Shown here piece by piece: positions 1 through 11,884 of a stretch of 11,884 bases of DNA (within the stretch, counting starts at the first letter, position 1; every line of letters starts with the position of its first letter). The notes below the pieces were generated by a model, which was given only the letters and a program-made list of their open reading frames with translations, made no database searches and was not told where the DNA came from. Made by a program: the position numbers and the translations under genes. Source of the stretch: Armatimonadota bacterium (GTDB taxonomy: Bacteria; Armatimonadota; Armatimonadia; Armatimonadales; Armatimonadaceae). The stretch covers positions 1 through 11,884 of the forward strand of contig JAYUUO010000144.1 in the NCBI GenBank assembly GCA_043754515.1, in the 5' to 3' direction.

Positions 1-2441
1 CGCTCGCGCGACCCCGCTTCGGCGTACACGCGCACCACCGGCTCCGTGCCCGAGGAGCGCAGGAGCAGCCAGGAGGCGTCGGAGAAAGTGAGAAGCGTGC
101 CGTCTTTACGCGTGACGGACTGGAGTGTCTCGCCCGCGAACTCGGCGGGTTTCAAACCCTGCAAATGCGCGATGATGCGTGGCATCTTCTCCGGCGACGG
201 GTGCAAATCGCTCCGCGTGTAGGCGTGGAAGCCGACCTCGGCGTGCAGATCGTCCACCAGTCCGGCGAGCGATTTGCCCGCGAACGCCATCGCTTCGAGT
301 AGCAGAAGCCCCGCAAACACGCCGTCCCGCTCCGGCAGATGGTTCTTGAACCCGATCCCGCCGCCCTCCTCGCCGCCGATCAGGATGTCCTCGGATAGCA
401 TGATTTCGCTGATCCTCGCGAACCCGACCGGCGTTTCCGTGATCGGCAGCCCGTGCTTCGCGCAGAGCTTGTCAAGCATCCGGGTAGTGGACACGGTGCG
501 CGCCACGCCGCCCGTCCACCCCCGGCCGTTGATCAGGTGCCGCAGGAGCACGGCGATGACGCGCTGGCTGTCCACGAAAACGCCGTTCGCGTCGCACGCG
601 CCCAAGCGATCCCCGTCCCCGTCCAGCGCGATCCCGACCGAGGCACCGCCCGCGCGAACCGCCTCGAAGAGCGGCGACAGGTTCCGCTCTACCGGCTCCG
701 GTTGCACCCCGCCGAACCACGGGTTACGTTCGGCGCGGATCTCGGACACGTCTACGCCCGTGCCGCTTAATATTCCGGACAGGTAGCCCGCGCCCGAGCC
801 GTGCATCGGGTCAATGACCACCTTCAGACTGGCGGCTTTGATACGCTTCAAGTCCACGAACCGGGCGCAGTGAGCGAGGTAAGGCGCGGCGATCCGCTCG
901 GTGACGGGCGTGACACGCGCTGTTTTAGGAGCGGCTCCGGAGCGTAGCAACTGGCGCAGATGCCCCTCAATCTGTCCCAGCATCTCGCTTGTCGCCGGGC
1001 CGCCGAAGTGCGCCTTGATCTTCAGCCCGTTGAACTGCGGCGGGTTATGCGACCCGGTGATCATGATGCCAGCCGCCGCGCCATAGTAGCGGCACGCGAA
1101 CGATACCATGGGCGACACGCACGCCGCGTCACAAAGGCGGATCGGCACGCCGTTCGCCGTGGCCACCTGCGCGACCGCCTCGGCGAAAAACTCGGACTGC
1201 GCGCGGCAATCGTACCCGATCACCAGGCCGCTACCGGACACAGCGCCGGACGCCACCCAGTCGCAGACCGCCTGTGTCACGAGGCGGACGCTGTCCACCG
1301 TGAAGTCATCGGCGATGATCCCGCGCCAGCCGTCGGTGCCGAACTTGATTGCGGCCCGCTGAATATCGCCGCGCGTGGGGAGGCGTGCCACCACCGACGC
1401 GATCACGGCGTCCGCGCCGATTACGGAGCCGGGTTGCACCGACGCACCACCACGCACCACGCAGTTGTCGCCTAGAATACAGCCGCGCACCACCGCGCCT
1501 GCCTCAATCGTGGTGCCGCGCCACAGTATCGAGTCCTCAATCACCGCGCCCTCGTCAATGCGGCAACGGGACCCGATGGCACACACGCCCGAAACGCGGA
1601 CATCCTTGCCGATCTCGCAGTGATGGTTCACGAAGATACGTCCCGATAGCAACGCGGTCGGATGGATGGTCGTGTTCTCGCCGACCCAGACCCCCTGCCG
1701 CACCTCGTTCCCGCCGATAATCGCCTCCACCACGCCACCCAGAATATCGGCCTGCGCCTGCTGGTAGTCGGGGAGCGTCGCGATAGACCGCCAGTAGCGG
1801 CCGTTGTTGCCGACTCCGTACATGGGGACGCCTTCCGCGAGCAGTTGAGGGAACAGTTGCCGCTCGAACGAGACTTCGCGGTCGGGCGGCATCCGGCGGA
1901 GCAGATCGCGGCGGATCACGTACACGCCCGCGTTCACGAAGCCTGACTGCGTTTCCTCTACCGCCGGTTTCTCGCGGAACGCGGTGATGCGGTTGTCGCC
2001 GTCGAACGACACGACGCCGAAGCGCGACGGGTTCTCGACCTGCGCCAGGAGCATGGTGACGCCCGCCTCGCGCTCCGCGTGCCATTCCAGAAGCCGCGTC
2101 AGGTCGGCGTCGGTCAGGTTGTGTCCGTTCAGGATCAGCACCGACTCCTCAATCAGGCGCGGCAACACCGAGCGCACCGCCCCCGCCGTGCCGAGCGGCG
2201 CGAGTTCGCGGTGGTAGCGGATCGTCATCCCCAACGCGTCGCCCTCGCCGAAGCGCGATTCGAACACCTCGGGCATCACCTGCAAGCAGAGAATGGCCTC
2301 GGTAATGCCGTGTTTTCTCAGCAGTTCGAGCTGGTACTGCACCAGCGGCTTGCCGACGAGCGGGAGCATCGCGCGTGGCTGACGCGCGGTTAACGGGTAG
2401 AGGGGCGCGCCACGCTCCCCGGCGAGTATAACGGCTTGCAT
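1..2441 (-). CDS. Fusion of a sugar-phosphate nucleotidyltransferase-like domain (M1P-guanylyltransferase family, degenerate), a hexapeptide beta-helix and a phosphomannomutase/phosphoglucomutase; 3' end outside the window (>813 aa)
   Basis: Manual translation from ATG at 2441: MQAVILAGERGAPLYPLTARQPRAMLPLVGKPL...PLGTAGAV...FREKP...VNAGVY, then hexapeptide repeats (~1740-1390). It continues in the same frame without a stop into IKFGTDGWRGIIADDFT, IGYDCR, ITGSHNP, DPMHG, DGDGDR, GGEEGGG and RSSGTEPVVRVYAE. Frame checked at the domain junction (~1350) and at position 3. Confidence 0.93.
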   Translation of the reverse strand, partial: MQAVILAGERGAPLYPLTARQPRAMLPLVGKPLVQYQLELLRKHGITEAILCLQVMPEVFESRFGEGDALGMTIRYHRELAPLGTAGAVRSVLPRLIEESVLILNGHNLTDADLTRLLEWHAEREAGVTMLLAQVENPSRFGVVSFDGDNRITAFREKPAVEETQSGFVNAGVYVIRRDLLRRMPPDREVSFERQLFPQLLAEGVPMYGVGNNGRYWRSIATLPDYQQAQADILGGVVEAIIGGNEVRQGVWVGENTTIHPTALLSGRIFVNHHCEIGKDVRVSGVCAIGSRCRIDEGAVIEDSILWRGTTIEAGAVVRGCILGDNCVVRGGASVQPGSVIGADAVIASVVARLPTRGDIQRAAIKFGTDGWRGIIADDFTVDSVRLVTQAVCDWVASGAVSGSGLVIGYDCRAQSEFFAEAVAQVATANGVPIRLCDAACVSPMVSFACRYYGAAAGIMITGSHNPPQFNGLKIKAHFGGPATSEMLGQIEGHLRQLLRSGAAPKTARVTPVTERIAAPYLAHCARFVDLKRIKAASLKVVIDPMHGSGAGYLSGILSGTGVDVSEIRAERNPWFGGVQPEPVERNLSPLFEAVRAGGASVGIALDGDGDRLGACDANGVFVDSQRVIAVLLRHLINGRGWTGGVARTVSTTRMLDKLCAKHGLPITETPVGFARISEIMLSEDILIGGEEGGGIGFKNHLPERDGVFAGLLLLEAMAFAGKSLAGLVDDLHAEVGFHAYTRSDLHPSPEKMPRIIAHLQGLKPAEFAGETLQSVTRKDGTLLTFSDASWLLLRSSGTEPVVRVYAEAGSRE

Positions 2442-2541: not shown

Positions 2542-4077
2542 ATGTTCCGTTACACCGCCCCGCTTTCTCTCGCCGCCGCTCTCGCCGTCGTTACAGTGCA
2601 CGCCGCGCCCCCGCTCTTGATCCCGCGCCCGAAGCAGATCACTGCCACGGAGGGGGTACCTTTCGCGCTTCCGGCGGTGCCGCGCATTGTGATCGCCCTG
2701 GACGCGACGACAGCCGAAAAACGCGCCGCCGAACTGTTGAAAAAAGAAATGAGCCTTTATTACGGACGGAAAGCAACCACGGTGACGGTGCCGCGTGCGC
2801 AACTTTCTTCGCAAACGCACGCCATCGTGATCGGCGACCGCGCCGCCGCGCCGCCTCCCGCTCGCCCAGAAGGGTACGGAGTAAACGCGACGCGCATGCG
2901 CGTCGCGTTCGCGGGCCGTGACGACGCGGGAACATACTGGGCGGCGCAGACCGTGGCGCAACTCCTGCAACAGGGCGCGGGCGGCGAGCCCGTCATCCGC
3001 GCGGCGAAGATCACGGACTGGCCTTCGATGCGGCTACGCGGCGTCCACCTGTTCCACGGGCAGAACGCGCTCCCGTTCCAGGAGAAACTGATCGAGCGGG
3101 TATTGTCGCGCTACAAGATGAACTCCTTATTTCTGGAGGTCGAGCAGGTACGCTGGGATCACGACCCGTCCGTCGCGCCGAGCTGGGCGGGCACCAAAGC
3201 CGACCTCAAAAAAGAGATCGCGTTCGCGAAGGCGCGCTACGTCACGCCGTACCCGCTCGTGCAGGGCTACGGGCACATGGAGTGGATGTTCAACAAGCCG
3301 CAAAACAAGAAGTACGCAGAGGACCCCGATAAGCCGTACGCGGTCAACTTTACCGACCCGGAGGCAGTTAAGTATGTGGAAGGGTTCATCACCGAGGCGG
3401 ACGATCTGTTTCAGGCACCGGCGTTCCATGTCGGTATGGACGAGGTAACGATGCGCGGGCGGTTCCCGTACCGGTCAAAAAACAAGACGTTCCCGCAGTT
3501 GTACGGCGGCGCGGTGCGGCACTACCAGGATCTGTTCAAGAAGCGCGGCAAGCCGATCTTTATCTGGGCGGACATGGGGCTGTTCCCGGCGGACGTGACG
3601 CCCGATTTCGGCACGGCGCGGACGTCTGCGGAGGCGAAGGCGGTGCGCGACGGCCTGCCGCGCGACGTGATCCTGGCGAACTGGCAGTACGGCGAGCGCG
3701 ACGTCTACCCGTCCATGGATCTGTACAAGAAGGAAGGGTTCAAGAACCTGGTCGCGACCACGTGGAACCGCCCCGGCAACATCTCGGGGTTCAGCAAGAA
3801 GATCGCGCAAATCGGCGGCATGGGCGCGATTCAGAGCACGTGGGCGGGCTACGAGTCGAGCGAGTCGCAACTGGCGGACCCGAAGATGCGCCCGCAGTTC
3901 ACGGCGTTCATCCTCGCCGCCGAGTACTTCTGGAACGGCGGCACCGGCCCCGCGCCCGCGAAACTGCCGTACAACTGGGACGCCGTGTTTGCCCGATCGT
4001 ACGCAGGCGCGTCGGCGTCGGACGGCGTCGCGTATCACGCCGCGAAAGGCCGCGCGGTGGTCGCGCGGCGCAAGTAG
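2542..4077 (+). CDS. Secreted glycoside hydrolase family 20 (beta-N-acetylhexosaminidase-like)
   Basis: Signal peptide MFRYTAPLSLAAALAVVTVHA. GH20 domain-2 motifs LLIPRPKQ, PEGY, DDAGTYWAAQT and ITDWP..RGVHL, plus the catalytic HVGMDEV motif. Start placed at ATG 2542 (AAGGA at 2524-2528) rather than 2440, which overlaps the divergent gene. Confidence 0.9.
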   Translation: MFRYTAPLSLAAALAVVTVHAAPPLLIPRPKQITATEGVPFALPAVPRIVIALDATTAEKRAAELLKKEMSLYYGRKATTVTVPRAQLSSQTHAIVIGDRAAAPPPARPEGYGVNATRMRVAFAGRDDAGTYWAAQTVAQLLQQGAGGEPVIRAAKITDWPSMRLRGVHLFHGQNALPFQEKLIERVLSRYKMNSLFLEVEQVRWDHDPSVAPSWAGTKADLKKEIAFAKARYVTPYPLVQGYGHMEWMFNKPQNKKYAEDPDKPYAVNFTDPEAVKYVEGFITEADDLFQAPAFHVGMDEVTMRGRFPYRSKNKTFPQLYGGAVRHYQDLFKKRGKPIFIWADMGLFPADVTPDFGTARTSAEAKAVRDGLPRDVILANWQYGERDVYPSMDLYKKEGFKNLVATTWNRPGNISGFSKKIAQIGGMGAIQSTWAGYESSESQLADPKMRPQFTAFILAAEYFWNGGTGPAPAKLPYNWDAVFARSYAGASASDGVAYHAAKGRAVVARRK

Positions 4078-4122
4078 GGGGGAGAGCGGGGAACGTTGTT
4101 CCTCCGGTTTGCACACCTGCCC

Positions 4123-4182
4123 AATCTAAGAATGGGTGGAAAACGCGGCAGAAGCCGCCCCGATTTTGGCGTCATTTTATGC
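4123..4182 (+). repeat. Degenerate direct-repeat copy A of the lysA upstream region (partner at 11718-11783)
   Basis: Collinear shared blocks aatctaagaa / g.gtg / aaacgcggc / cgcc.cgatttt / gcg / tcatt.ta, found by manual gapped alignment. Confidence 0.6.
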
Positions 4183-4245
4183 AAGCCATGAAGGTTAATT
4201 ATACAAGTTGTTGATGAGTTCTTCGTACAAGCTGGCCAGCTAAAT

Positions 4246-5844
4246 CTAAGATGAAACTATGTTTCGTGTCCAGGAAGCCGTCCTAGCGACAAGCCTTGCT
4301 GCCTCTTCAGGTATTGTTATTTTATTTCCCGATAATGTGTAGGTAAGCCCACCTAGTTGAATAAGAGCCTGATCGAATACTAACAAAGCATATGTTGATT
4401 GTGTGCAGTATCGTCTTGCTTCATTGCGAATGGCGGTGACAAGTGCCACAGTATTTATTGCAAGGAAATCTGCACTTGTGAGTAGATCAGGGATGGGCAT
4501 GGTCGTCTCATACAAAGTGACGCAACGGTCAACAAGGCTTTCGTTTAAACTATCGCTTTTCCCTGTCGGTGATGTCTGGTGGAGAATCGCAGTCACTTCC
4601 AAGGCAGCGAGATCCTGTGCAGCTGGTTTCCGCCCCATACCTGCTGCGTCGAAAATATAGCCGTTAACTTGCTCGCCTCCCTCATCTATAGCGATATTAG
4701 TTATGTTCAAGTCGCCGTGGGTACAATTGCGAAACTTAACCCACTCTCTACGTTGGTCGTTCAATAGCTCATCAAAAAGCTTGAGAGGAGAGTTACATGG
4801 CTCCAAATCAATATTTCCACCGAACCGTTTCCATGCAGCTTCAAGACGATTACGGTCATGATCCTTCCAAACTAACTCGGCGTAAGAGATTTCGTCTGGT
4901 ATCACTCGACCTAAATCGTCAAGTTGATTAACTATAGCTTGGACAATACCGGGGATTGTCTCGAGTACTTTTGGATCACTCCGTTGTAAATATGATGCTA
5001 AAGAGGTGGGGCGTGCATCGCCTGCGCCAACCTTTTCTGTAACTAGAAGTGCCTTTCGCGGAGTTATCGCATGATGAACGACTTTTATATGTGGCAACTT
5101 ACTCGATAGCGTAAGGCAATCTTTGTGAGTGTAGTCAGCACCATCAGCACCAGTAAACTTAAAGAATAGAGGGCGTGAACAACCACGTCCATCATCTAAG
5201 CAAAACTTGCCTTGCAACACTTTTGTCCAAGACTGGGTGCCTTCACCACTTTTATTGCTTGTAGCACTCCACCAAGAAAAAAGTAATCCTAGACATTGTG
5301 ATTGTCCCAATACGCAACGACGCAGCATATCATCCTCTCGTGGGGAAAGTGGAGGGTAAGTGGCCTCGCTTTCTTGGGAGAATAAATGGATACCAACATC
5401 TGTGTAGCGTTGACATTGCTTGATGGCTTCTTCAATCGCTTCGTCTTCGTCCACGCTCTTGTTCACAGCACGTCCATACCAAAAATTTTCTCGCAATTGA
5501 TCTTGGAGAATATAGCGCGTTTCTGCCAATTGTCCGCTAACAACCAGTAAGGCTGGTACTGGGAAATTTTCCCTTTCTGCGGCTTGTTTTATCAATGCCA
5601 ACCCAGCTTGAGTTCCAGGTTCAGGATCTTCCCCTGCGGTCAGAGGTAATTGAAGGTCCACGATCACTAGATGAAAAGGTTCCCGTGACGCCAGACATTC
5701 CTGAGCATCATTATACGAAGGCACGAGACAAGGCGGAGCCACGTCGTAGTTCGCACTTAAATGATTGAACAAGTTCTGGTAGTTTTTGCGGGCAATCGAT
5801 GCATCGTCTATGATTAAAGTATGAATTCGGCGTGGATAACTCAT
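4246..5844 (-). CDS. Response-regulator receiver domain fused to an APH/choline-kinase-like (TCAD9-like) phosphotransferase domain
   Basis: Receiver motifs: LIIDD, VIVDLQLP (phosphoacceptor Asp), LVVSG and VNK. Kinase-fold motifs: LFFKF (beta3 Lys), LLVTEK, HGDLNITNI (catalytic loop), YIFDA (metal-binding Asp) and DLAALE. The start overlaps the upstream stop (ATGA). Confidence 0.85.
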   Translation of the reverse strand: MSYPRRIHTLIIDDASIARKNYQNLFNHLSANYDVAPPCLVPSYNDAQECLASREPFHLVIVDLQLPLTAGEDPEPGTQAGLALIKQAAERENFPVPALLVVSGQLAETRYILQDQLRENFWYGRAVNKSVDEDEAIEEAIKQCQRYTDVGIHLFSQESEATYPPLSPREDDMLRRCVLGQSQCLGLLFSWWSATSNKSGEGTQSWTKVLQGKFCLDDGRGCSRPLFFKFTGADGADYTHKDCLTLSSKLPHIKVVHHAITPRKALLVTEKVGAGDARPTSLASYLQRSDPKVLETIPGIVQAIVNQLDDLGRVIPDEISYAELVWKDHDRNRLEAAWKRFGGNIDLEPCNSPLKLFDELLNDQRREWVKFRNCTHGDLNITNIAIDEGGEQVNGYIFDAAGMGRKPAAQDLAALEVTAILHQTSPTGKSDSLNESLVDRCVTLYETTMPIPDLLTSADFLAINTVALVTAIRNEARRYCTQSTYALLVFDQALIQLGGLTYTLSGNKITIPEEAARLVARTASWTRNIVSS

Positions 5845-6902
5845 GATACCTCCAGAGGGAAAATCATTCGTACTCGAAACTCACCAACTGCTGTGGATAC
5901 TAAATCTATCGTTCCGTTTAGACGGTTCACTGCTTCCGATATTTCTAGAAGTCCTCGACCACGCCCCATGCCTTTTGTAGAGAATGGGTCACGGAATGCT
6001 TTCTCCGCAGCGAGCCTATCAAAGCCAGGACCGCTATCGCTGATTCGCAGCGTCATTTTATTGTTTGATACTTCCATATGGACAGTGATAATGCAAGGAG
6101 TAGTCACCGCTTGACGAGCGTTGTTCCATATATTCTTAAATACTGCGTTCAGTAGGTGATCACTAGCACGAATAGAAACTGACTCTATTCCAAGGGAGGC
6201 ATGAATACGTAGCTCAGCTGGAACAGAAGTTGTTTCCGCATAACGGGTGGCGCAATTTCTGAGCCAATCATGTAGACAAACAAGACGCATAGTGAAGTAC
6301 TCATCTCCCGTCTCAAATTCGACTAGTCGTCCCACGTTCTTCAAACCAGTTTGAGCAGCATGTATCTGATCATTTAAATTGACATGCAACGGATTAGACT
6401 CGGGAAGGTGCTTGGCGATACTACGTAGCTCGCGTAGGGGAATTTGCATTTCAATCAAAGCATTTCGTACTTCATGTCGTAGCTGCCCCGCAACATACCG
6501 ATATGCTCGTAACAGGTTCTCAGAACTGTAATTATCTTGTCCCTGTCCTTGATCTTGAGATAGAGTTGGCGGAATATCTCGTATTGCTTCTTCAATAGCA
6601 CGACGTGCAAATGTGTCTGTTTCAATCTCTAACCACTGCCTCAAGTGCTCTGCAATACGAACTTTTTGTGAATGAGTACGAACCGCATTTGCGATTACAT
6701 GACGAAGGCGGCCTTCACCCGGGGCAGCTGATTGCAGAAGTATATATTGAACCTGCTGTTCTTCAGTTTCAAGGATACGTGTGAAGGTGAGACGTGCTTC
6801 CCGTGCATCTTCCGTGGCGAGGGTGCGTAGGCGCAGATATATATCGTGTGCCTCATAGGTCGCTTTATCACGTCGCTGGATGTCTTCCTCAGTCACGAGC
6901 AT
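5841..6902 (-). CDS. Soluble histidine kinase with a helical (possibly HEAT-like) N-terminal domain
   Basis: H-box LRHEVRNAL, N-box FKNIWNNARQA, G1 ISDSGPG, F-box PFSTK and G2 GMGRGRGL. No hydrophobic transmembrane segment. Overlaps the upstream gene by 14 nt. Confidence 0.9.
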   Translation of the reverse strand: MLVTEEDIQRRDKATYEAHDIYLRLRTLATEDAREARLTFTRILETEEQQVQYILLQSAAPGEGRLRHVIANAVRTHSQKVRIAEHLRQWLEIETDTFARRAIEEAIRDIPPTLSQDQGQGQDNYSSENLLRAYRYVAGQLRHEVRNALIEMQIPLRELRSIAKHLPESNPLHVNLNDQIHAAQTGLKNVGRLVEFETGDEYFTMRLVCLHDWLRNCATRYAETTSVPAELRIHASLGIESVSIRASDHLLNAVFKNIWNNARQAVTTPCIITVHMEVSNNKMTLRISDSGPGFDRLAAEKAFRDPFSTKGMGRGRGLLEISEAVNRLNGTIDLVSTAVGEFRVRMIFPLEVS

Positions 6903-8772
6903 ACCGTTGGCGTCGTCGCTCGAACGCGTCCTGGCCGCCCTCTAGTAAGTTAACTATTTCGTCTCGACATTCGTCCAACGTACCTGCTTTTTCCACATAA
7001 CCACGTTTTCCGTCGGAGTTCATAACTACAACAAAATCTGCTTCTCCTAATACAGGAATGTTCGCGTTGTGCGTGATGAATATCATCTGTCGCTGACTAC
7101 GCATTTGTTGAATGGTTCCAACCACTGTTTCATATATGAAGTGGTTGTCGAGATTATCTTCCGGTTGGTCGATTACTAAAGGAATATCTCTTCTGGCAAG
7201 GAGCAGGGGCAAAAGTGCAGTGCATTTTTGCCCGCGAGAAAGATCAGATGCGTCTTTGAATATCGGCTCTATAGTAGTGCCAACGTTAAGTTCGATACAG
7301 ATTTGATCATCGGTTGGCAAAACCTCTAAGGCTAAAGGATCTAGTTTGGATTGAAACGCTCCAAGTAACTTTCTGCAACGCTCATCACCAAGAGAAGTTT
7401 GAAGTTCCAGTTCCTGAACATCGTCTGTTTGAATTATTTGTGCAAGCTGTTCCGGCCTCAATCGCTTGAGGGACGCTAAGATGTCTTCATGATTTCGCAG
7501 TCCAGACCCGCGAAGTGCCTCTATCAGGGTTTGCTGATAGACTAAATCATCGGCGTGACGTAATACTCGAACACGTACATTTGTTACGGCTTTACCCTGT
7601 AGTTCTGCAGCAGATTGTGCCCGAAGCTCGGAAACCTGGTCGCGCTCACGAAGAAAATTACCCTTGATATTGCGTCTTTGTTCCAGTAAATTTGTTAGCT
7701 CTACTTCTGCTTCGCTACGTGATTTTTCTACTGCTTCCAACCGAGTTATGGCTTCCTCTACTTTAGCTCTCGCTTGAATCATGTGACTAGCAGTCATATT
7801 CTCAGTTTCGAGTCGCTGGTGCTCCGCTTCCTGGCCCTCATGAGCGGCTAGGAAAGACCGGCGTATATTATGTAGTTCATTAACCCCATGTTCGACCAAT
7901 TCTGTTGCCCGCACCACACTAGATTCCAAAGACTCTGCTATTACATTTATAGCATTATCTGCTTCTTTGCCTATTAAAACATTTTTCGATTCGGTAAAGG
8001 AAAGAATGGGGTACTTGTTGTAAGAATGAGCTTCGTTCAGTGCTACAAGGTCCCGATGACAATCAGCGAGTTGTTTCAACGCGGCATCAACCTGAATCAA
8101 TTCACGTGCGTTGAGTGATCGTTGCTTGGACGCTCGGGTGAGACTTGTTGACATATCATTCACAGATGGTTGTGGGAGTGCTTGTAGACGTATACGTGCA
8201 TCACCAATTTCTTCCGCTTGCTCTTTCAAATCGCCTATCAATCGCCGAGTAGCCTTAATACGATCAGCATTCGCTTCCAGCGAACGTCGCAGGTCTGCAA
8301 TGCGCAATTGCACTTCACGTAGCGATTCAATATTAAGTTCATCGAGCAATGCACGTCGACGCTCTCCCAGATTCTCATCGGCGATTGCTTCGATCTCCGT
8401 GCTACTAAACCCATCAATTGGAAGAAAAGAGCCACGGTCTAAATCTACAGATGGGATTGATATGCCATCACCATTCAGCAGAGTTCCGGACTGACGAAAA
8501 GTGCGACGGATTGTATATATCGCGTGGCTACTACCTGTGATTGCAGCACGCAGTGTTATGCTCGCGGTCCCGAGGTTTGCCTGAATCATATCGGTGCGAG
8601 ACTTACTAGCACCCGTAAGTCCAGCAATCCCGTAGCGAATTGCTTCGGTAAGAGTAGACTTTCCACTCCCGCGAGGTCCTATGACGCAAGTAAGGCCAAC
8701 AGGAAAATGAAGGCGAACTCCCTCAAGGAATCCTCCGCAAATCTCTATCGAATTCAAACTCCAACTTGACAT
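6889..8772 (-). CDS. Coiled-coil ABC/SMC-like ATPase (TrlF/Ppl-type ATPase motifs, no PHP domain), 627 aa
   Basis: Walker A GPRGSGKST, a long heptad-rich centre, signature LSRGQK, Walker B/D-loop LVIDQPEDNLDN, H-loop ITHNANIPV and C-terminal LEGG..AF.RR. Start moved to ATG 8772 because AGGAGA lies 7 nt upstream. Confidence 0.9.
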   Translation of the reverse strand: MSSWSLNSIEICGGFLEGVRLHFPVGLTCVIGPRGSGKSTLTEAIRYGIAGLTGASKSRTDMIQANLGTASITLRAAITGSSHAIYTIRRTFRQSGTLLNGDGISIPSVDLDRGSFLPIDGFSSTEIEAIADENLGERRRALLDELNIESLREVQLRIADLRRSLEANADRIKATRRLIGDLKEQAEEIGDARIRLQALPQPSVNDMSTSLTRASKQRSLNARELIQVDAALKQLADCHRDLVALNEAHSYNKYPILSFTESKNVLIGKEADNAINVIAESLESSVVRATELVEHGVNELHNIRRSFLAAHEGQEAEHQRLETENMTASHMIQARAKVEEAITRLEAVEKSRSEAEVELTNLLEQRRNIKGNFLRERDQVSELRAQSAAELQGKAVTNVRVRVLRHADDLVYQQTLIEALRGSGLRNHEDILASLKRLRPEQLAQIIQTDDVQELELQTSLGDERCRKLLGAFQSKLDPLALEVLPTDDQICIELNVGTTIEPIFKDASDLSRGQKCTALLPLLLARRDIPLVIDQPEDNLDNHFIYETVVGTIQQMRSQRQMIFITHNANIPVLGEADFVVVMNSDGKRGYVEKAGTLDECRDEIVNLLEGGQDAFERRRQRYARD

Positions 8773-8860
8773 TACTGTTCTCCTGAGCAAAATATTACGC
8801 CCCAATACGCTTGCCACTATACTCCAATATTCACCTATCCAGGTGATCATGGACTTTAAC

Positions 8861-8866
8861 ATTATA
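8861..8866 (-). promoter_or_regulatory. Candidate -10 box for the three-gene operon
   Basis: Perfect TATAAT in an AT-rich intergenic stretch about 90 nt upstream of the ATPase start. No convincing -35. Confidence 0.4.
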
Positions 8867-9193
8867 CAACATATTCTGTTGTTTTTTGATATACATACTA
8901 CATATTGATTTTAATTTATCTCCCCTTCTCAAAACAAATGTTTCTGAAGCTTCCTTGTTACGGCGTGGGTCTAATTGTTGGTTGTGTTTGTGGTAGTTGT
9001 AAGTGGTGCAAATAATCGGCGGCAGTTTGCGCTTTACTGGCGGCGGCAAAGATTGCCCGATGATCAAGTTTGTACAATCGTGGGTTAGTTCTCGCCCCGG
9101 TCTGATTCGCTCATCGCCTTCAGTGGCTCCGTGTCCAGGGACCGCTTCAACGCCCATTCCTTCGTCATCCGCTGAAGCACCAGAGTACAAAGG

Positions 9194-9212
9194 TTGCAGG
9201 TATGCCATCGGA
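9194..9212. repeat. 19-nt insertion containing GCATACCTGCAA (minus strand)
   Basis: Removing it restores the reading ...SAAN-LCTLVLQR.... The same 12-mer occurs on the plus strand at 9614-9625. Confidence 0.7.
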
Positions 9213-9247
9213 TTCGCCGCGCTGGTATCGTTCGTGAAGATGCCGAC

Positions 9248-9270
9248 GCGCATTTTGGGACAAAATGCTG
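9248..9270. repeat. 23-nt palindromic insertion
   Basis: gcattttg-gga-caaaatgc (perfect 8-bp arms). Removing it restores KRRTRV-VGIF. Confidence 0.8.
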
Positions 9271-9342
9271 AACCCGCGTCCGTCGTTTCACCTCGCCGAA
9301 GACCCTCTCCAGCACGTTCGTCGTCCGCAGGAGACGGTGATG

Positions 9343-9381
9343 CCAAGAAAATCGCTCCAGGCGATTTCTCTGCCCCGAAGG
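9343..9381. repeat. ~39-nt double-hairpin in-frame insertion
   Basis: aaatcgc-tccag-gcgattt plus CCC-TTCG-GGG on the minus strand. Removing it gives FPSS-HHRLLRTTN, matching typical IS256 spacing. Confidence 0.65.
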
Positions 9382-9608
9382 GGAGGAGGGGAAGGTAAGC
9401 ACGTTCGTCAGACCGCTCTTCAGAACCCCGACTGCTTTCACGAACCGCTTCCCGTATCGCTCCACGAACGCCGCCGCCAGCGCGTCCGCGCTTTCTTTGC
9501 GATGCACGGCGGAAATGCCTTTCAGATCACCGGCAACTTCCGCCATGCCTGCGGCGGGCCGTGGCACAGTATGTTTCTCCGGAAGTGGACCACGCACTGC
9601 TGCCATGG

Positions 9609-9629
9609 CATTTGCATACCTGCAAATAG
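9609..9629. repeat. ~21-nt palindromic in-frame insertion
   Basis: atttgca-tacc-tgcaaat (perfect 7-bp arms). It adds LFAGMQM between ELPTA and PWQQC. Confidence 0.75.
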
Positions 9630-9850
9630 CGCCGTAGGTAGTTCGACTTGCACCGCGCTCTTGACGCTCTCGTGGTCGTCGGAGACCACTAGCTGGACGC
9701 CCGAGAGCCCGTGCCCGATCAGCCCCTTGAGCAGGTTACGATGGGCTTCTTTCTTTCCGCCCGCCGCGGATTCCACGGCAAGAACCTCCCGGAACCCGTC
9801 TTCATTCACACTGATCACAACGAGCAGAGCTAAATCACCCACATGGCCTG

Positions 9851-9877
9851 AGCAAAATGGCTCCGCCATTTGTGCGA
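9851..9877. repeat. ~27-nt palindromic in-frame insertion
   Basis: gcaaaatgg-ctccg-ccatttgtgc. It adds about 9 residues between YLKVNW and GHVGDLALL. Confidence 0.65.
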
Positions 9878-9950
9878 CCCAGTTGACCTTCAAGTACGTC
9901 GCGTCCGAGTAGAGGTACGGGTAACCCAGATACAGGCGGCGGGCGCGGAA

Positions 9951-10094
9951 GCAGGCATTTGTTTTAAGAGAGGTTCTTGTCACTTTCCCTTCCCAAACTG
10001 CGGCTATGTCCCAGTGCTGGGCGGAGGCGGGGTCGGCTAGAGCGACGGAAAGGGCGACGGACGCGAGGAACGGGAGGAGAACACACTTTTTCAT
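9951..10094 (-). pseudogene. 5' stub of a secreted-protein gene, fused in frame to the transposase remnant
   Basis: MKKCVLLPFLASVALSVALADPASA-QHW is a typical Sec signal peptide with an A-S-A cleavage site. A TATAAT lies at 10136-10131. The reading switches to transposase sequence at FRARR (~9950). Confidence 0.65.
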
Positions 10095-10095
10095 A

Positions 10096-10128
10096 TGGTA
10101 CCAACCTGCTTTCTGGTACCAACCTGCT
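10096..10128. repeat. 15-bp direct repeat (two copies, 18-bp period)
   Basis: tggtaccaacctgct at 10096-10110 and 10114-10128, between the TATAAT and the ATG of the stub gene. Confidence 0.9.
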
Positions 10129-10368
10129 GTATTATACCCGGCTGGCGCGGATTCCGGGACGATTTTGCGTAAGTATTTCTACTGTTTTTTGTCCCGGCCT
10201 GCGAACTTTTCAGTGTGCCGTCCGCCTCCCGGTTCCGACGGAACACTAAGCCAATGGCTTCCCCTTTTACCGCGAGCGCGTCCCCCAGCCCCGCGCCTAT
10301 CGCAAGCGCGTCCCCCGCAACCGTGCTTTCGTCGCGGATCGGGTCCGGGCGCGGCGACAGGCCCCCTC

Positions 10369-11703
10369 TTACCCCTTGCGCAACCGCTCCGGCAGCCGGT
10401 CTTGCCGGATTACATCGTCCAGCGTCTCGCGCTCCACGACGACGTCCGCGTGCCCGTCCCGCGCGAACACCACGGCGGGGCGCGTGAACCGGTTGTAGTT
10501 CGACGCCATCGCCTGGTTGTACGCGCCCGTGGTCTGCACCGCGAGCAGGTCACCCGCGTCCGTGTCGCCGAGCGGCAGATCCCAGATCAGAATGTCGGTC
10601 TCGCAGTGCTTGCCGCAGATCGTTACCGTCTTGTCTTTGGCTTGACCGGCGCGGTTCGCCACCATCGCCGAGTACACCGCGTCGTAGAGTTGCGGGCGCG
10701 GGTTGTCGCTCATGCCGCCGTCCACCGACACGTAGAACCGCTCGCCCGGCGCGTCCGGGAGCAGGACGCGCTTGGTGTGCCCGATGGTGTACAGCGTGGT
10801 GCCCGCCTCCGCGACCAGCGTCCGCCCCGGCTCCTGCCATAATCGCGGCAGGGGCAGATCGTGCTTCTTCAGTTCGGTGAGCAGTTTGCCGACGATCAGT
10901 TCGGCGAACTCCTCGTAGGTCGGCGGGTGTTGTGATTCCAGGTACCGCACCCCGAGTCCGCCCCCGATGTCGAGGTCGGCGACGGTGAACCCGGTCGCCG
11001 CGCGGATCTCGGCCAGGAACGCGACCATGATCTCGATGGCCTGCTCGTGCGTGTGCGGGTCGAGCAGTTGCGATCCGATGTGGCAATGAATACCGGTCAG
11101 TTCCACGCCCGGCAGATCGTTCATTGCCTCGGTGACGGCAGCAAGCGCGGAGCCTTCGCTGATGTTGATGCCGAACTTGCTGTCTTCCTGCCCGGTGCGG
11201 ATGCGGCGGTGCGTCTTCGGGTCAATCCCCGGCGTGACCCGGATCAGGATCGCCTGACGCTTGCCCCGCGCGAGTGCCATCGCGGACAGTCGGCGCAACT
11301 CGAAGAAGTTGTCCACCACGAACCGTCCGATACCGGCGTCGAGGCCCATCGCGAGTTCGGCGTCGGACTTGTTGTTGCCGTGCATCAGGAGGCGTTCGGC
11401 GGGGAATCCGGCGGTCAGGGCGGTGTGCAACTCCCCGGCGGACGCGACATCGAGGCCCAACCCCTCTTCGTCCACGAGCCGCGCCATCGCCTGAACCAGG
11501 AACGCTTTGCCGGCGTAGGTGACTTTGCTCTCGCCGGGGTACGCGGCGGCGAACGCGGCGACATAACGGCGGCAGTTGTCGCGTAACGCCTGTTCGTCCA
11601 TCACATAAAGCGGGGTGCCGAACTGTTCGGCGAGTTCGGCGGTGTCACAACCGCCGATTTCGAGGTGACCGCGATGATTGACGCGCTGTGTGCCTAATAA
11701 CAT
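10369..11703 (-). CDS. lysA: Diaminopimelate decarboxylase
   Basis: FGTPLYVMDE, YAGKAF (PLP lysine), HGNNKS, SKFG, HCHIGSQ, DIGGG, EPGR, DGGMSDNPRPQLY, GKHCE and GAY...ASNYN; 444 aa. Confidence 0.97.
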   Translation of the reverse strand: MLLGTQRVNHRGHLEIGGCDTAELAEQFGTPLYVMDEQALRDNCRRYVAAFAAAYPGESKVTYAGKAFLVQAMARLVDEEGLGLDVASAGELHTALTAGFPAERLLMHGNNKSDAELAMGLDAGIGRFVVDNFFELRRLSAMALARGKRQAILIRVTPGIDPKTHRRIRTGQEDSKFGINISEGSALAAVTEAMNDLPGVELTGIHCHIGSQLLDPHTHEQAIEIMVAFLAEIRAATGFTVADLDIGGGLGVRYLESQHPPTYEEFAELIVGKLLTELKKHDLPLPRLWQEPGRTLVAEAGTTLYTIGHTKRVLLPDAPGERFYVSVDGGMSDNPRPQLYDAVYSAMVANRAGQAKDKTVTICGKHCETDILIWDLPLGDTDAGDLLAVQTTGAYNQAMASNYNRFTRPAVVFARDGHADVVVERETLDDVIRQDRLPERLRKG

Positions 11704-11717
11704 AAAAGATGAACCCG

Positions 11718-11783
11718 AATCTAAGAAGAGTGAAACGCGGCGAACCTGGTTCGGATCGCCGCGATTTTCGCGATCATTGTAGC
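11718..11783 (+). repeat. Degenerate direct-repeat copy B (lysA promoter/leader; partner at 4123-4182)
   Basis: Same collinear blocks as copy A, with an extra cgaacc-t-ggttcg palindrome in the middle. Confidence 0.6.
11736..11763 (-). terminator. Stem-loop upstream of lysA (terminator of the upstream gene, attenuator or 5' hairpin)
   Basis: cgcggcga-N12-tcgccgcg, followed on the minus strand by tttcactcttc (a weak U tract). Confidence 0.4.
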
Positions 11784-11805
11784 GTCAAACGGGGGTCGGT
11801 GCCAA
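11776..11805 (-). promoter_or_regulatory. Putative lysA promoter
   Basis: Minus-strand TTGGCA (11805-11800), 18 bp spacer, TACAAT (11781-11776). Confidence 0.5.
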
Positions 11806-11807
11806 AA

Positions 11808-11884
11808 CTAGCGGGGGGAAGGCACCGCCGCGCTCGGGGACGGCGACGGGGACGGCGAAACATCCAGCGTCACGAACACGACCT
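11808..11884 (-). CDS. C-terminal end of an upstream gene (partial, Ser/Pro-rich tail)
   Basis: Reads ...VVFVTLDVSPSPSPSPSAAVPSPR* with host-like GC3 codons and a TAG at 11810-11808. Confidence 0.6.
   Translation of the reverse strand, partial: VVFVTLDVSPSPSPSPSAAVPSPR

Follow-up and report, generated by a model that had tools for sequence, protein, structure and literature searches.

A conserved cassette of an SMC-like ABC ATPase, a soluble histidine kinase and a receiver-kinase fusion in an Armatimonadota bacterium: a candidate defensive phosphorelay

Results

Gene content and layout of the locus

We analysed a three-gene cassette that lies at positions 4246-8772 of contig JAYUUO010000144.1 of an Armatimonadota bacterium (assembly GCA_043754515.1). 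The window, i.e., the whole stretch of DNA that was analysed, is this one entire contig (11,884 nt) of the host genome (G000). The cassette encodes an SMC-like ABC ATPase, a soluble histidine kinase (HK) and a receiver (REC) domain fused to a kinase, and an original prediction, made from the DNA sequence alone, had proposed it as an undescribed defence system. As claimed there, the three co-oriented open reading frames (ORFs) are intact on the minus strand (Table 1), with overlaps of 14 nt between the ATPase and HK genes (6889-6902) and of 4 nt between the HK and receiver-kinase genes (5841-5844), and the block of these three genes is the low-GC insert: its GC content is 46.2%, whereas the flanks have 65.6% and 65.0% and the host genome 62.4%. 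The start codon of the ATPase gene is preceded by AGGAGA; its frame is open up to 8862, and the homologues begin at the equivalent of 8772. Each of the cassette genes is present as a single copy in the host genome.

Table 1. Features of the cassette and its upstream flank in window coordinates.
Feature	Position	Strand	Size or residues	Basis or description
ATPase gene: coiled-coil ABC (Rad50/SMC-like) ATPase, TrlF/Ppl lineage, without N-terminal PHP	6889..8772	minus	627 aa, start ATG 8772	NCBIfam TrlF, Pfam AAA_23/SMC_N/AAA_21
HK gene: soluble class I histidine kinase with helical HEAT-like N-terminus, DHp and CA	5841..6902	minus	353 aa	HATPase_c above cut-off
HEAT-like domain of the HK, predicted ATPase-binding module	6573..6845	minus	~residues 20-110	structure model, alignment, interface
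Receiver-kinase gene: receiver-kinase fusion	4246..5844	minus	532 aa	structure model (predicted local distance difference test, pLDDT, 92.2); 238 homologues
Receiver domain	5395..5832	minus	residues 5-150	fold match to LuxO REC 3cfy
APH/choline-kinase-fold kinase domain, TCAD9-related	4249..5352	minus	residues 165-532	fold and profile matches
AT-rich upstream spacer with ribosome-binding site	8773..9084	none		40.1% GC
Broken IS256/Mutator-family transposase, N-terminally incomplete	9085..10094	minus		two ORFs, 9522-10094 and 9085-9606

Conservation and distribution of the cassette

Loci were collected with an alignment of the receiver-kinase, which yielded 19 genome loci and 80 of the 98 metagenome loci. 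The HK gene adjoins the receiver-kinase gene in 87 of the 89 loci with at least 300 nt of upstream sequence, and the fixed order ATPase-HK-receiver-kinase was found in 67 of the 69 loci whose upstream sequence extends to 1300 nt or more; clustering at 60% identity leaves 21 groups, of which 20 show it. This is the co-occurrence among homologues on which the original prediction depended. The exceptions appear to have decayed: in L017 the kinase is split and both partners are missing, in L079 the HK is partial and the ATPase absent, and in L034 the kinase is incomplete at its N-terminus. An identical 14-nt overlap is seen in 45 of 65 loci, and when loci are compared in pairs, the identities of the three proteins rise and fall together (Spearman 0.72-0.75 in 27 loci), as co-transfer predicts. 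The cassette is real, intact, mobile and conserved, and its three genes almost certainly form one functional unit. Strong matches were present in five of the 401 genomes of the host phylum, host included (these may overlap with the 19 genome loci, and the counts were not summed), and in a single one of the 401 genomes of G403's phylum (G403); none was found in the same-genus genomes G270 and G386, whose assemblies are 82-88% complete. The named carriers belong to Planctomycetota, Acidobacteriota, Armatimonadota, Verrucomicrobiota and Pseudomonadota. The kinase protein gave 24 pattern matches in viral contigs, none of which was confirmed, and a tblastn search of 72,556 plasmids returned no match.

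The ATPase

Judged by its sequence, the ATPase belongs to the TrlF/Ppl ATPase lineage. Its best family was NCBIfam TrlF (293.6 bits against a cut-off of 350, E 4.8e-87), with the match covering model positions 291-943 of 944; because it begins at position 291, the N-terminal ~290 positions, where PHP is located in Ppl-type proteins, are missing. The scores were below the other NCBIfam cut-offs as well (Spaf_1101, 160 against 475; Ppl, 112 against 1000), and among the PADLOC models Ppl was the best match (82 bits), LmuB was weak (39.9 bits) and JetC was matched in Walker A only (12.4 bits). The motifs Walker A GPRGSGKST (residue 32; K38 at window 8659-8661), LSRGQ (511), DQPEDNLD (535) and THNANI (567) were located, and Walker A, the signature, DQPEDNLD and THNAN are invariant across 46 aligned homologues, with DQPED and HN invariant across all of the ATPase groups compared. 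The placement in the TrlF/Ppl clade, originally argued from DQPEDNLD and THNANI, is thus borne out by the TrlF match, the conserved motifs and the tree described below. The accompanying claim that the core motifs of the cassette are intact was right for the ATPase, HK, receiver and kinase motifs, all of which lie at the claimed positions, but not for the ABC Q-loop, whose Gln is absent. This residue is replaced in 30 of 30 ATPases with a kinase output, whereas it is kept in 32 of 32 proteins of a sister clade and in 17 of 19 long-form proteins. No CxxC hook was found in the ATPase. A split PHP gene upstream of the ATPase was considered and rejected, as none is present in the window or among the named neighbours.

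The histidine kinase and its predicted contact with the ATPase

The HK carries H143 (window 6474-6476), an N-box at 256, DSGPG at 289 and GRGRGL at 313, and H143, N147, N257, N261, D289, G291, G293, F303, G315 and G317 are invariant in 46 aligned rows. The H143-x-x-x-N147 arrangement is a motif linked with HK phosphatase activity. In the structure model (pLDDT 86.9), the DHp-CA core resembles ZraS/WalK/CpxA; all of the fold-search matches were to DHp-CA and left the N-terminal domain uncovered. The HK was correctly predicted to be membrane-free, since no transmembrane segment was found (maximum 19-residue hydropathy, 1.0). Its first 110 residues are helical in the model and include the invariant R65, R67, W90, E94, D96 and F98. 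The leads towards a HEAT assignment are Atlas feature matches to HEAT clusters (0.90-0.91) and weak, sub-cut-off Pfam HEAT_2 matches in five of five sister HKs tested; the HK and the sister HK align at an hhalign probability of 97.5% across the whole protein (288 columns). No TPR Pfam match at E<=0.1 was found in the HK, whose helical N-terminus is ~100 aa long.

The full ATPase and HK residues 1-115 were modelled as a complex in one job, each with its own alignment. The model scored 0.79, compared with 0.10 for the best of three controls; of 157 solved complexes, 116 attain the score mark, as do two of 215 mismatched pairs, a benchmark that is rough here because own alignments were used. The runs agreed in at least 98% of contacts, with a partner pLDDT of at least 83. 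The ATPase profile matched 22 solved sequences, which were distant SMC, Rad50, RecF and transporter chains (best E 1.8e-7), so that recall of a like complex by the model is unlikely. The modelled interface comprises ATPase residues 367-385, 402-409, 436-460, 487 and 490 and HK residues 27-34, 61-76 and 95-105, the latter including the invariant R65, D96 and F98. Interface columns were more conserved than their surroundings in both the ATPase (0.66 vs 0.51; 22 of 10000 permutations) and the HK (0.76 vs 0.56; three of 10000 permutations), and several ATPase positions of the interface (K370, L374, R405 and R439) are specific to this clade, the sister clade having other residues there. The complex prediction suggested for the trio thus has the N-terminal domain of the HK docked on the ATPase. 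Binding of this domain to the ATPase is supported by the model, and it is likely that the ATPase gates the HK by this contact.

The receiver-kinase fusion

The homologues of the receiver-kinase fall into 157 clusters at 50% identity (E<=1e-30, fragments included). Its receiver domain matched LuxO REC 3cfy (VIA Z 15.4, root-mean-square deviation (rmsd) 2.1, 126 aligned), with D14, the phospho-acceptor D63 (window 5656-5658), S/T103 and K129 as key residues. The kinase domain matched APH(3')-Ia in Foldseek (E 5e-9) and APH(2'')-IIIa 3tdv (VIA Z 13.8, rmsd 4.1, 274 aligned), and carries K229, HGDLNITN at 376 (H376-G-D378), N383, D399 and D411. Conservation was read from the 93 aligned rows of 120 listed homologues, and all 93 have D14, D63, K129, K229, H376, D378, N383, D399 and D411. 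The match to Pfam TCAD9 (PF19974) was below the cut-off (32.5 bits against 40, E 7e-8); Atlas TCAD9 clusters were matched at 0.96, and most of the 120 homologues listed have a precomputed PF19974 assignment.

A sister clade with a different output

The ATPase alignment recovers 60 viral loci. In 37 of these (L152-L188), the ATPase is ~30% identical and has no long N-terminal extension; a HEAT-HK gene comes next in 34 of the 34 loci with room and then a receiver gene in 32 of 32 (e.g., L185:5962-10081), although these counts are partly circular, since the sister HK and receiver profiles were each built from 13 of these loci. The sister receivers are about 250-380 aa long (two are cut short), and none scores as a kinase. 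Pfam named a receiver in 11 of the 11 output proteins tested and a helix-turn-helix (HTH) in one of 11; the remaining outputs are probably HTH-like and DNA-binding. A further 22 viral loci (L190-L211) encode 840-1035-aa ATPase forms, with no HK matches and with PHP in two of four tested. The sister score class was also found in 21 of the 401 genomes of G403's phylum, in 27 places; in 20 of these (L258-L277), the triad was clean in 16 and irregular in four. Next to the sister triads lie recombinase, WYL, CI-like, sigma and phage genes, together with BREX, GmrSD, restriction-modification (RM) and AbiV genes. The sister triad, which is common in proviral contigs and also occurs in these genomes, often has defence genes on one side and recombinase or early phage genes on the other.

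In a quick maximum-likelihood tree of 81 ATPases (unrooted, long branches flagged; L015 and rows without both heads excluded), the 62 short forms lie on one side of a branch with 98% support, and the 30 kinase-output forms on one side of a branch with 100%. In five further proteins (P0331, P0337, P0359, P0361 and P0376), the receiver family of the cassette is fused to a helical C-terminus that lacks a catalytic kinase lobe and has no Pfam name. Four of these five proteins carry an apparent remnant of the kinase N-lobe, and the fusions represent a third output type. The sister clade and these additional fusions indicate that the conserved device is ATPase-HK-receiver with a swappable output.

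Neighbourhood of the cassette

Neighbours within 5 kb were de-duplicated, and 239 of 240 ORFs (of at least 170 aa, plus one shorter member from each of four conserved clusters) were scanned against Pfam; the controls were 15 fixed-coordinate 8-kb stretches from nine genomes carrying the cassette or a remnant. Defence families were counted by hand on 33 of 239 neighbours and on 0 of 74 control ORFs, in agreement with the predicted enrichment near defence genes (Fisher p 8e-5, which is overstated, since genes that belong to the same system do not count independently). The families counted were type I and III RM, GmrSD, Mrr, DUF499/DUF1156, which are BREX-related according to the accessible part of PMC12839542, BrxL, Wadjet, DarTG, KwaB, DruA, TIR, AbiV, Abi_C, Schlafen, PLD-HerA-NOV, DUF4145 and BilD; Fic, HipA, PIN, SNF2, lone ThiF/E2 and integrases were excluded. 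A strict defence neighbour was present in six of the 17 flanked genome loci (L001, L002, L006, L007, L010 and L014). No Pfam-named defence neighbour was present in the window, L004, L011, L013 or L018, and in the window the cassette stands alone between housekeeping genes, as would be expected if the unit carries its own effector. In several loci, the cassette is co-oriented and directly downstream of DUF1156/HEPN-DUF499, type I RM or BrxL genes (L001:621-7042, L002 and L095; L014:1072-6882; L027:274-2328), and the Wadjet genes in L007, L023 and L065 are separate neighbours. Near cassettes or remnants, we also observed a DACNG/DACNH sensor gene, a DarT-NADAR pair and a DUF6791-ThiF/M78 cluster (L064:9924-12423; L066:3031-4303; L017:12156-16249).

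A STAS(DUF4325)-winged HTH (STAS-wHTH) gene with a conserved FDFSFA serine motif precedes the ATPase gene in 31 of the 51 loci with room (e.g., L005:6529-7068), and its loci fall within one subclade of the ATPase tree. In 12 loci, a co-oriented Bil-like block of four genes (Ubl/E2/JAB/E1) lies between it and the ATPase gene (e.g., L046:2181-5051). An obligatory fourth gene was rejected as its role, given its absence from 20 of the 51 loci and from the host genome.

Flanks of the cassette in the host genome

The cassette is flanked by a GH20 gene and lysA. The adjacent insertion sequence (IS) remnant that had been noted earlier is present as two partial ORFs, which match Pfam Transposase_mut at model positions 148-272 and 270-362; it adjoins the trio, lies outside the conserved unit and is the sole copy in the host genome. 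No sigma-70-like promoter was found on the coding strand of the upstream spacer, and a promoter and terminator scan gave chance-level counts (seven against 7.1 and seven against 6.1). One public contig equals window 3678-11884 without a mismatch, at a depth of 26 (host flank, 25), and may be the source of the window. Among the repeats listed, none marks the boundaries of the cassette, and a clean empty site was not demonstrable: G270 and G386 have other genes after GH20, the contig of G401 stops there, and lysA is on separate contigs in all three. The site after GH20 carries differing small genes in each same-genus genome (L141:5600-6656; L142:1-1936), which suggests a variable insertion spot. 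Just past GH20, an element of ~70-85 nt (window 4134-4219) has 80-87% matches on three other host contigs; a small repeat at window 10215-10287 matches a fourth, and an 18-nt repeat occurs as a tandem pair (TGGTACCAACCTGC core) at window 10096-10131, the distal edge of the IS remnant. Window 3-2441 was read from the sequence as a fused nucleotidyltransferase/hexapeptide and phosphomannomutase-like gene, which adjoins GH20 in G401 too.

Discussion

Relation to known systems

The cassette had been put forward as matching no named system, and no PADLOC system matches the trio as a set; in PADLOC 2.0, the HK had no match, and the receiver-kinase matched PDC-M60C in its receiver part only (21.6 bits). 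No description of the trio was found in the literature covered, with the ABC-ATPase classification of Krishnan et al. 2020 and table S5 of the Detocs paper outside that coverage. The legend of DefensePredictor Fig. 6F lists HATPase and REC among predicted systems; the figure itself was outside the coverage. The comparisons that follow draw on the accessible parts of the sources cited.

Detocs is an anti-phage operon in which His and Asp mutants abolish defence (10.1101/2023.01.24.525353), and it resembles the trio in having an HK and a receiver fused to an enzyme, in its effector swapping and in its operon organisation. The corresponding residues are conserved in the trio (H143 in 46 of 46 and D63 in 93 of 93 rows). 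However, the sensor kinase of Detocs, DtcA, is large and carries TPRs (its His is residue 645 in the system that was tested), a separate gene, DtcB, encodes a lone receiver, and the effectors are of the PNP, hydrolase, nuclease, TOPRIM or transmembrane type, with no ABC ATPase in the accessible text, whereas the trio has a 353-aa HEAT-like HK, an ABC ATPase and an APH-fold kinase, and no conserved cluster at its loci represents a DtcB-like extra receiver. Membership in Detocs was rejected because of the missing DtcB and large TPR kinase and the APH/choline-kinase fold of the effector.

The Ppl/TrlF proteins (NF042955, NF045780 and NF045781) share the ATPase lineage and the DQPEDNLD/THN motifs with the trio. 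Ppl is, as far as its accessible description goes, a single gene of 840-1035 aa with a PHP exonuclease gated by nucleoside triphosphate (NTP) depletion and DNA ends; the 627-aa ATPase of the trio differs in lacking PHP and the Q-loop Gln and in that its output would be passed to a two-component relay. The absence of PHP and the sub-cut-off TrlF score led us to reject membership here as well. Lamassu (LmuABC, PMC12663957) likewise has an SMC-like ABC ATPase that is presumed to sense DNA, binds partners and controls an effector, and it binds double-stranded DNA ends. It signals by effector release, whereas the trio, which has no LmuC or LmuA, would signal by phosphotransfer; membership was rejected, as the partners do not match LmuA or LmuC and Ppl outscores LmuB for the ATPase. 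Wadjet was rejected because, of JetA/B/C/D, only the JetC match limited to Walker A was obtained. In Ambrosia (10.1101/2025.09.30.679545), an HK and a receiver are required in an anti-phage cluster, as might be the case here, but its components in the accessible text are XRE, methyltransferase, HNH and REC-wHTH, with no ABC ATPase or APH-fold kinase. The sister cassette (ATPase, HEAT-HK and REC-HTH-like protein, in proviral contigs and Planctomycetota genomes) has the same gene order as the trio and differs in its ~30% identity, its retained Q-loop Gln and the lack of a kinase output. The TCAD9 effectors of NTP-dependent ternary conflict systems have a related kinase domain. We take TCAD9, a term absent from the text searched, to derive from the work of Kaur et al. 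No vWA/MoxR/VMAP-type ternary genes were found among the Pfam names of the 239 neighbours, and the accessible text of Kaur et al. (PMC7159879) reports no histidine kinases among ternary-system effectors.

A defensive phosphorelay and its alternatives

We propose, with a probability of about 0.55, that the cassette is an ATPase-gated defensive phosphorelay with a kinase effector. The ATPase, of the Ppl lineage and without the PHP nuclease, would be the sensor, and, by analogy with Lamassu and Ppl, its trigger would most likely be free DNA ends or aberrant DNA, or a drop in NTP; according to the accessible part of a review, Ppl needs both DNA ends and NTP depletion. The HK, which has neither a membrane nor a ligand sensor, may read the conformation of the ATPase through its HEAT-like domain, bound in the model at ATPase residues 367-490. 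H143 would then autophosphorylate and pass the phosphate to D63, in keeping with the conservation of both residues, and phospho-D63 would turn on the APH-fold kinase. The active kinase might phosphorylate a metabolite, a nucleotide or tRNA end or a protein and, by analogy with the effectors of Detocs, bring about the arrest of the infected cell. A role in defence or conflict is fairly probable, and the part of the kinase as a toxic effector is tentative, at close to even odds. Taken as a whole, the cassette possibly behaves like a sensor of the Ppl/Lamassu kind that feeds a relay of the Detocs kind and may represent a new signalling class. The earlier interpretation was sound in the linkage of the genes, the enrichment, the lineage and the contact, the last of these as modelled; it missed the HEAT-like docking domain, the loss of the Q-loop Gln and the Detocs precedent.

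Several observations weigh against this proposal. The loss of the Q-loop Gln makes normal ATPase cycling uncertain, and, since the sister core has a non-kinase output, killing need not be the function of the core. The list of defence families was drawn after the output had been seen, and the controls came from nine genomes, whereas metagenomes supplied most of the test loci. At many loci no defence neighbour is recognised, and defence islands gather mobile cargo of whatever kind. The conservation of the interface may partly reflect folding, and the model was itself shaped by the alignment. From the fold match, a small-molecule kinase and a protein kinase are not distinguishable. A gene for a plausible kinase substrate, STAS-wHTH, precedes 31 of the 51 cassettes.

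This last point leads to the best-surviving alternative, in which the ATPase and HK sense damaged DNA or an infection, and the substrate of the kinase is a regulator, such as STAS-wHTH, that induces neighbouring defence or mobile-element genes. The STAS-wHTH gene with its serine motif and the Bil-like block placed after it fit such a role, as does the sister clade, which probably acts directly through a DNA-binding output: a short non-kinase C-terminus follows the receiver at all 32 viral loci with room and at 16 of the 20 genome loci, and its triads adjoin genes of phage and recombination functions and regulators along with defence genes. Moreover, Ambrosia ties a two-component pair to RM expression in the accessible part of that study (10.1101/2025.09.30.679545). 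The restriction of STAS-wHTH to one subclade of the ATPase tree, its absence from 20 of 51 loci and from the host genome, and the lack of any co-oriented gene in the window to be regulated nevertheless make a regulatory relay an unlikely account of the cassette.

Inducible detoxification, with the ATPase sensing DNA damage or stress caused by an antibiotic and the APH-like enzyme phosphorylating and inactivating the compound, is decidedly improbable. The top fold matches are indeed aminoglycoside phosphotransferases, maltokinase and choline kinase, NCBIfam APH_3p is weakly matched (14.8 bits), and Kaur et al. (PMC7159879, accessible part) propose low-molecular-weight substrates for APH-like effectors; nevertheless, identity to APHs is 11-20%, the named neighbours include no resistance genes while defence genes are common, and the plasmid search gave no match. 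Least probable of all is selfish addiction or hitch-hiking, in which the ATPase and the HK, with the HK as a phosphatase, would keep a toxic kinase dephosphorylated so that loss of the cassette kills and the defence neighbours reflect shared hot spots, for although the tight translational coupling, the patchy distribution and the integrases, recombinases and IS nearby fit it, as does the phosphatase-linked motif of the HK, a relay of three steps that includes a large ATPase would be an expensive means of addiction, decayed copies such as L017 exist and the relatives of the ATPase are phage-defence proteins.

Significance

Returning to the defensive phosphorelay, it is conceivable, though we consider it short of probable, that the cassette and its sister represent a new class of two-component systems in which a Rad50/SMC-like ABC ATPase is a detachable sensor of foreign or broken DNA or of nucleotide depletion, gates a HEAT-HK by contact and feeds interchangeable receivers, i.e., a DNA-binding regulator in proviral elements and, here, an APH-fold effector kinase whose immune output is kinase-mediated arrest. 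The order of an ABC ATPase sensor, a HEAT kinase and a downstream kinase would be a convergent parallel to the eukaryotic Rad50-ATM-Chk2 checkpoint. If true, two-component signalling would gain a new input, a cytoplasmic DNA- or nucleotide-sensing ABC ATPase in place of a ligand or membrane sensor, and immunity a new effector chemistry, an APH-fold kinase under receiver control; it would also illustrate how a nuclease sensor of the Ppl type could be converted to work in a phosphorelay. The mechanism would be testable by four point mutants, by the predicted interface and by the natural series of output swaps, in phyla whose immunity has been little studied.

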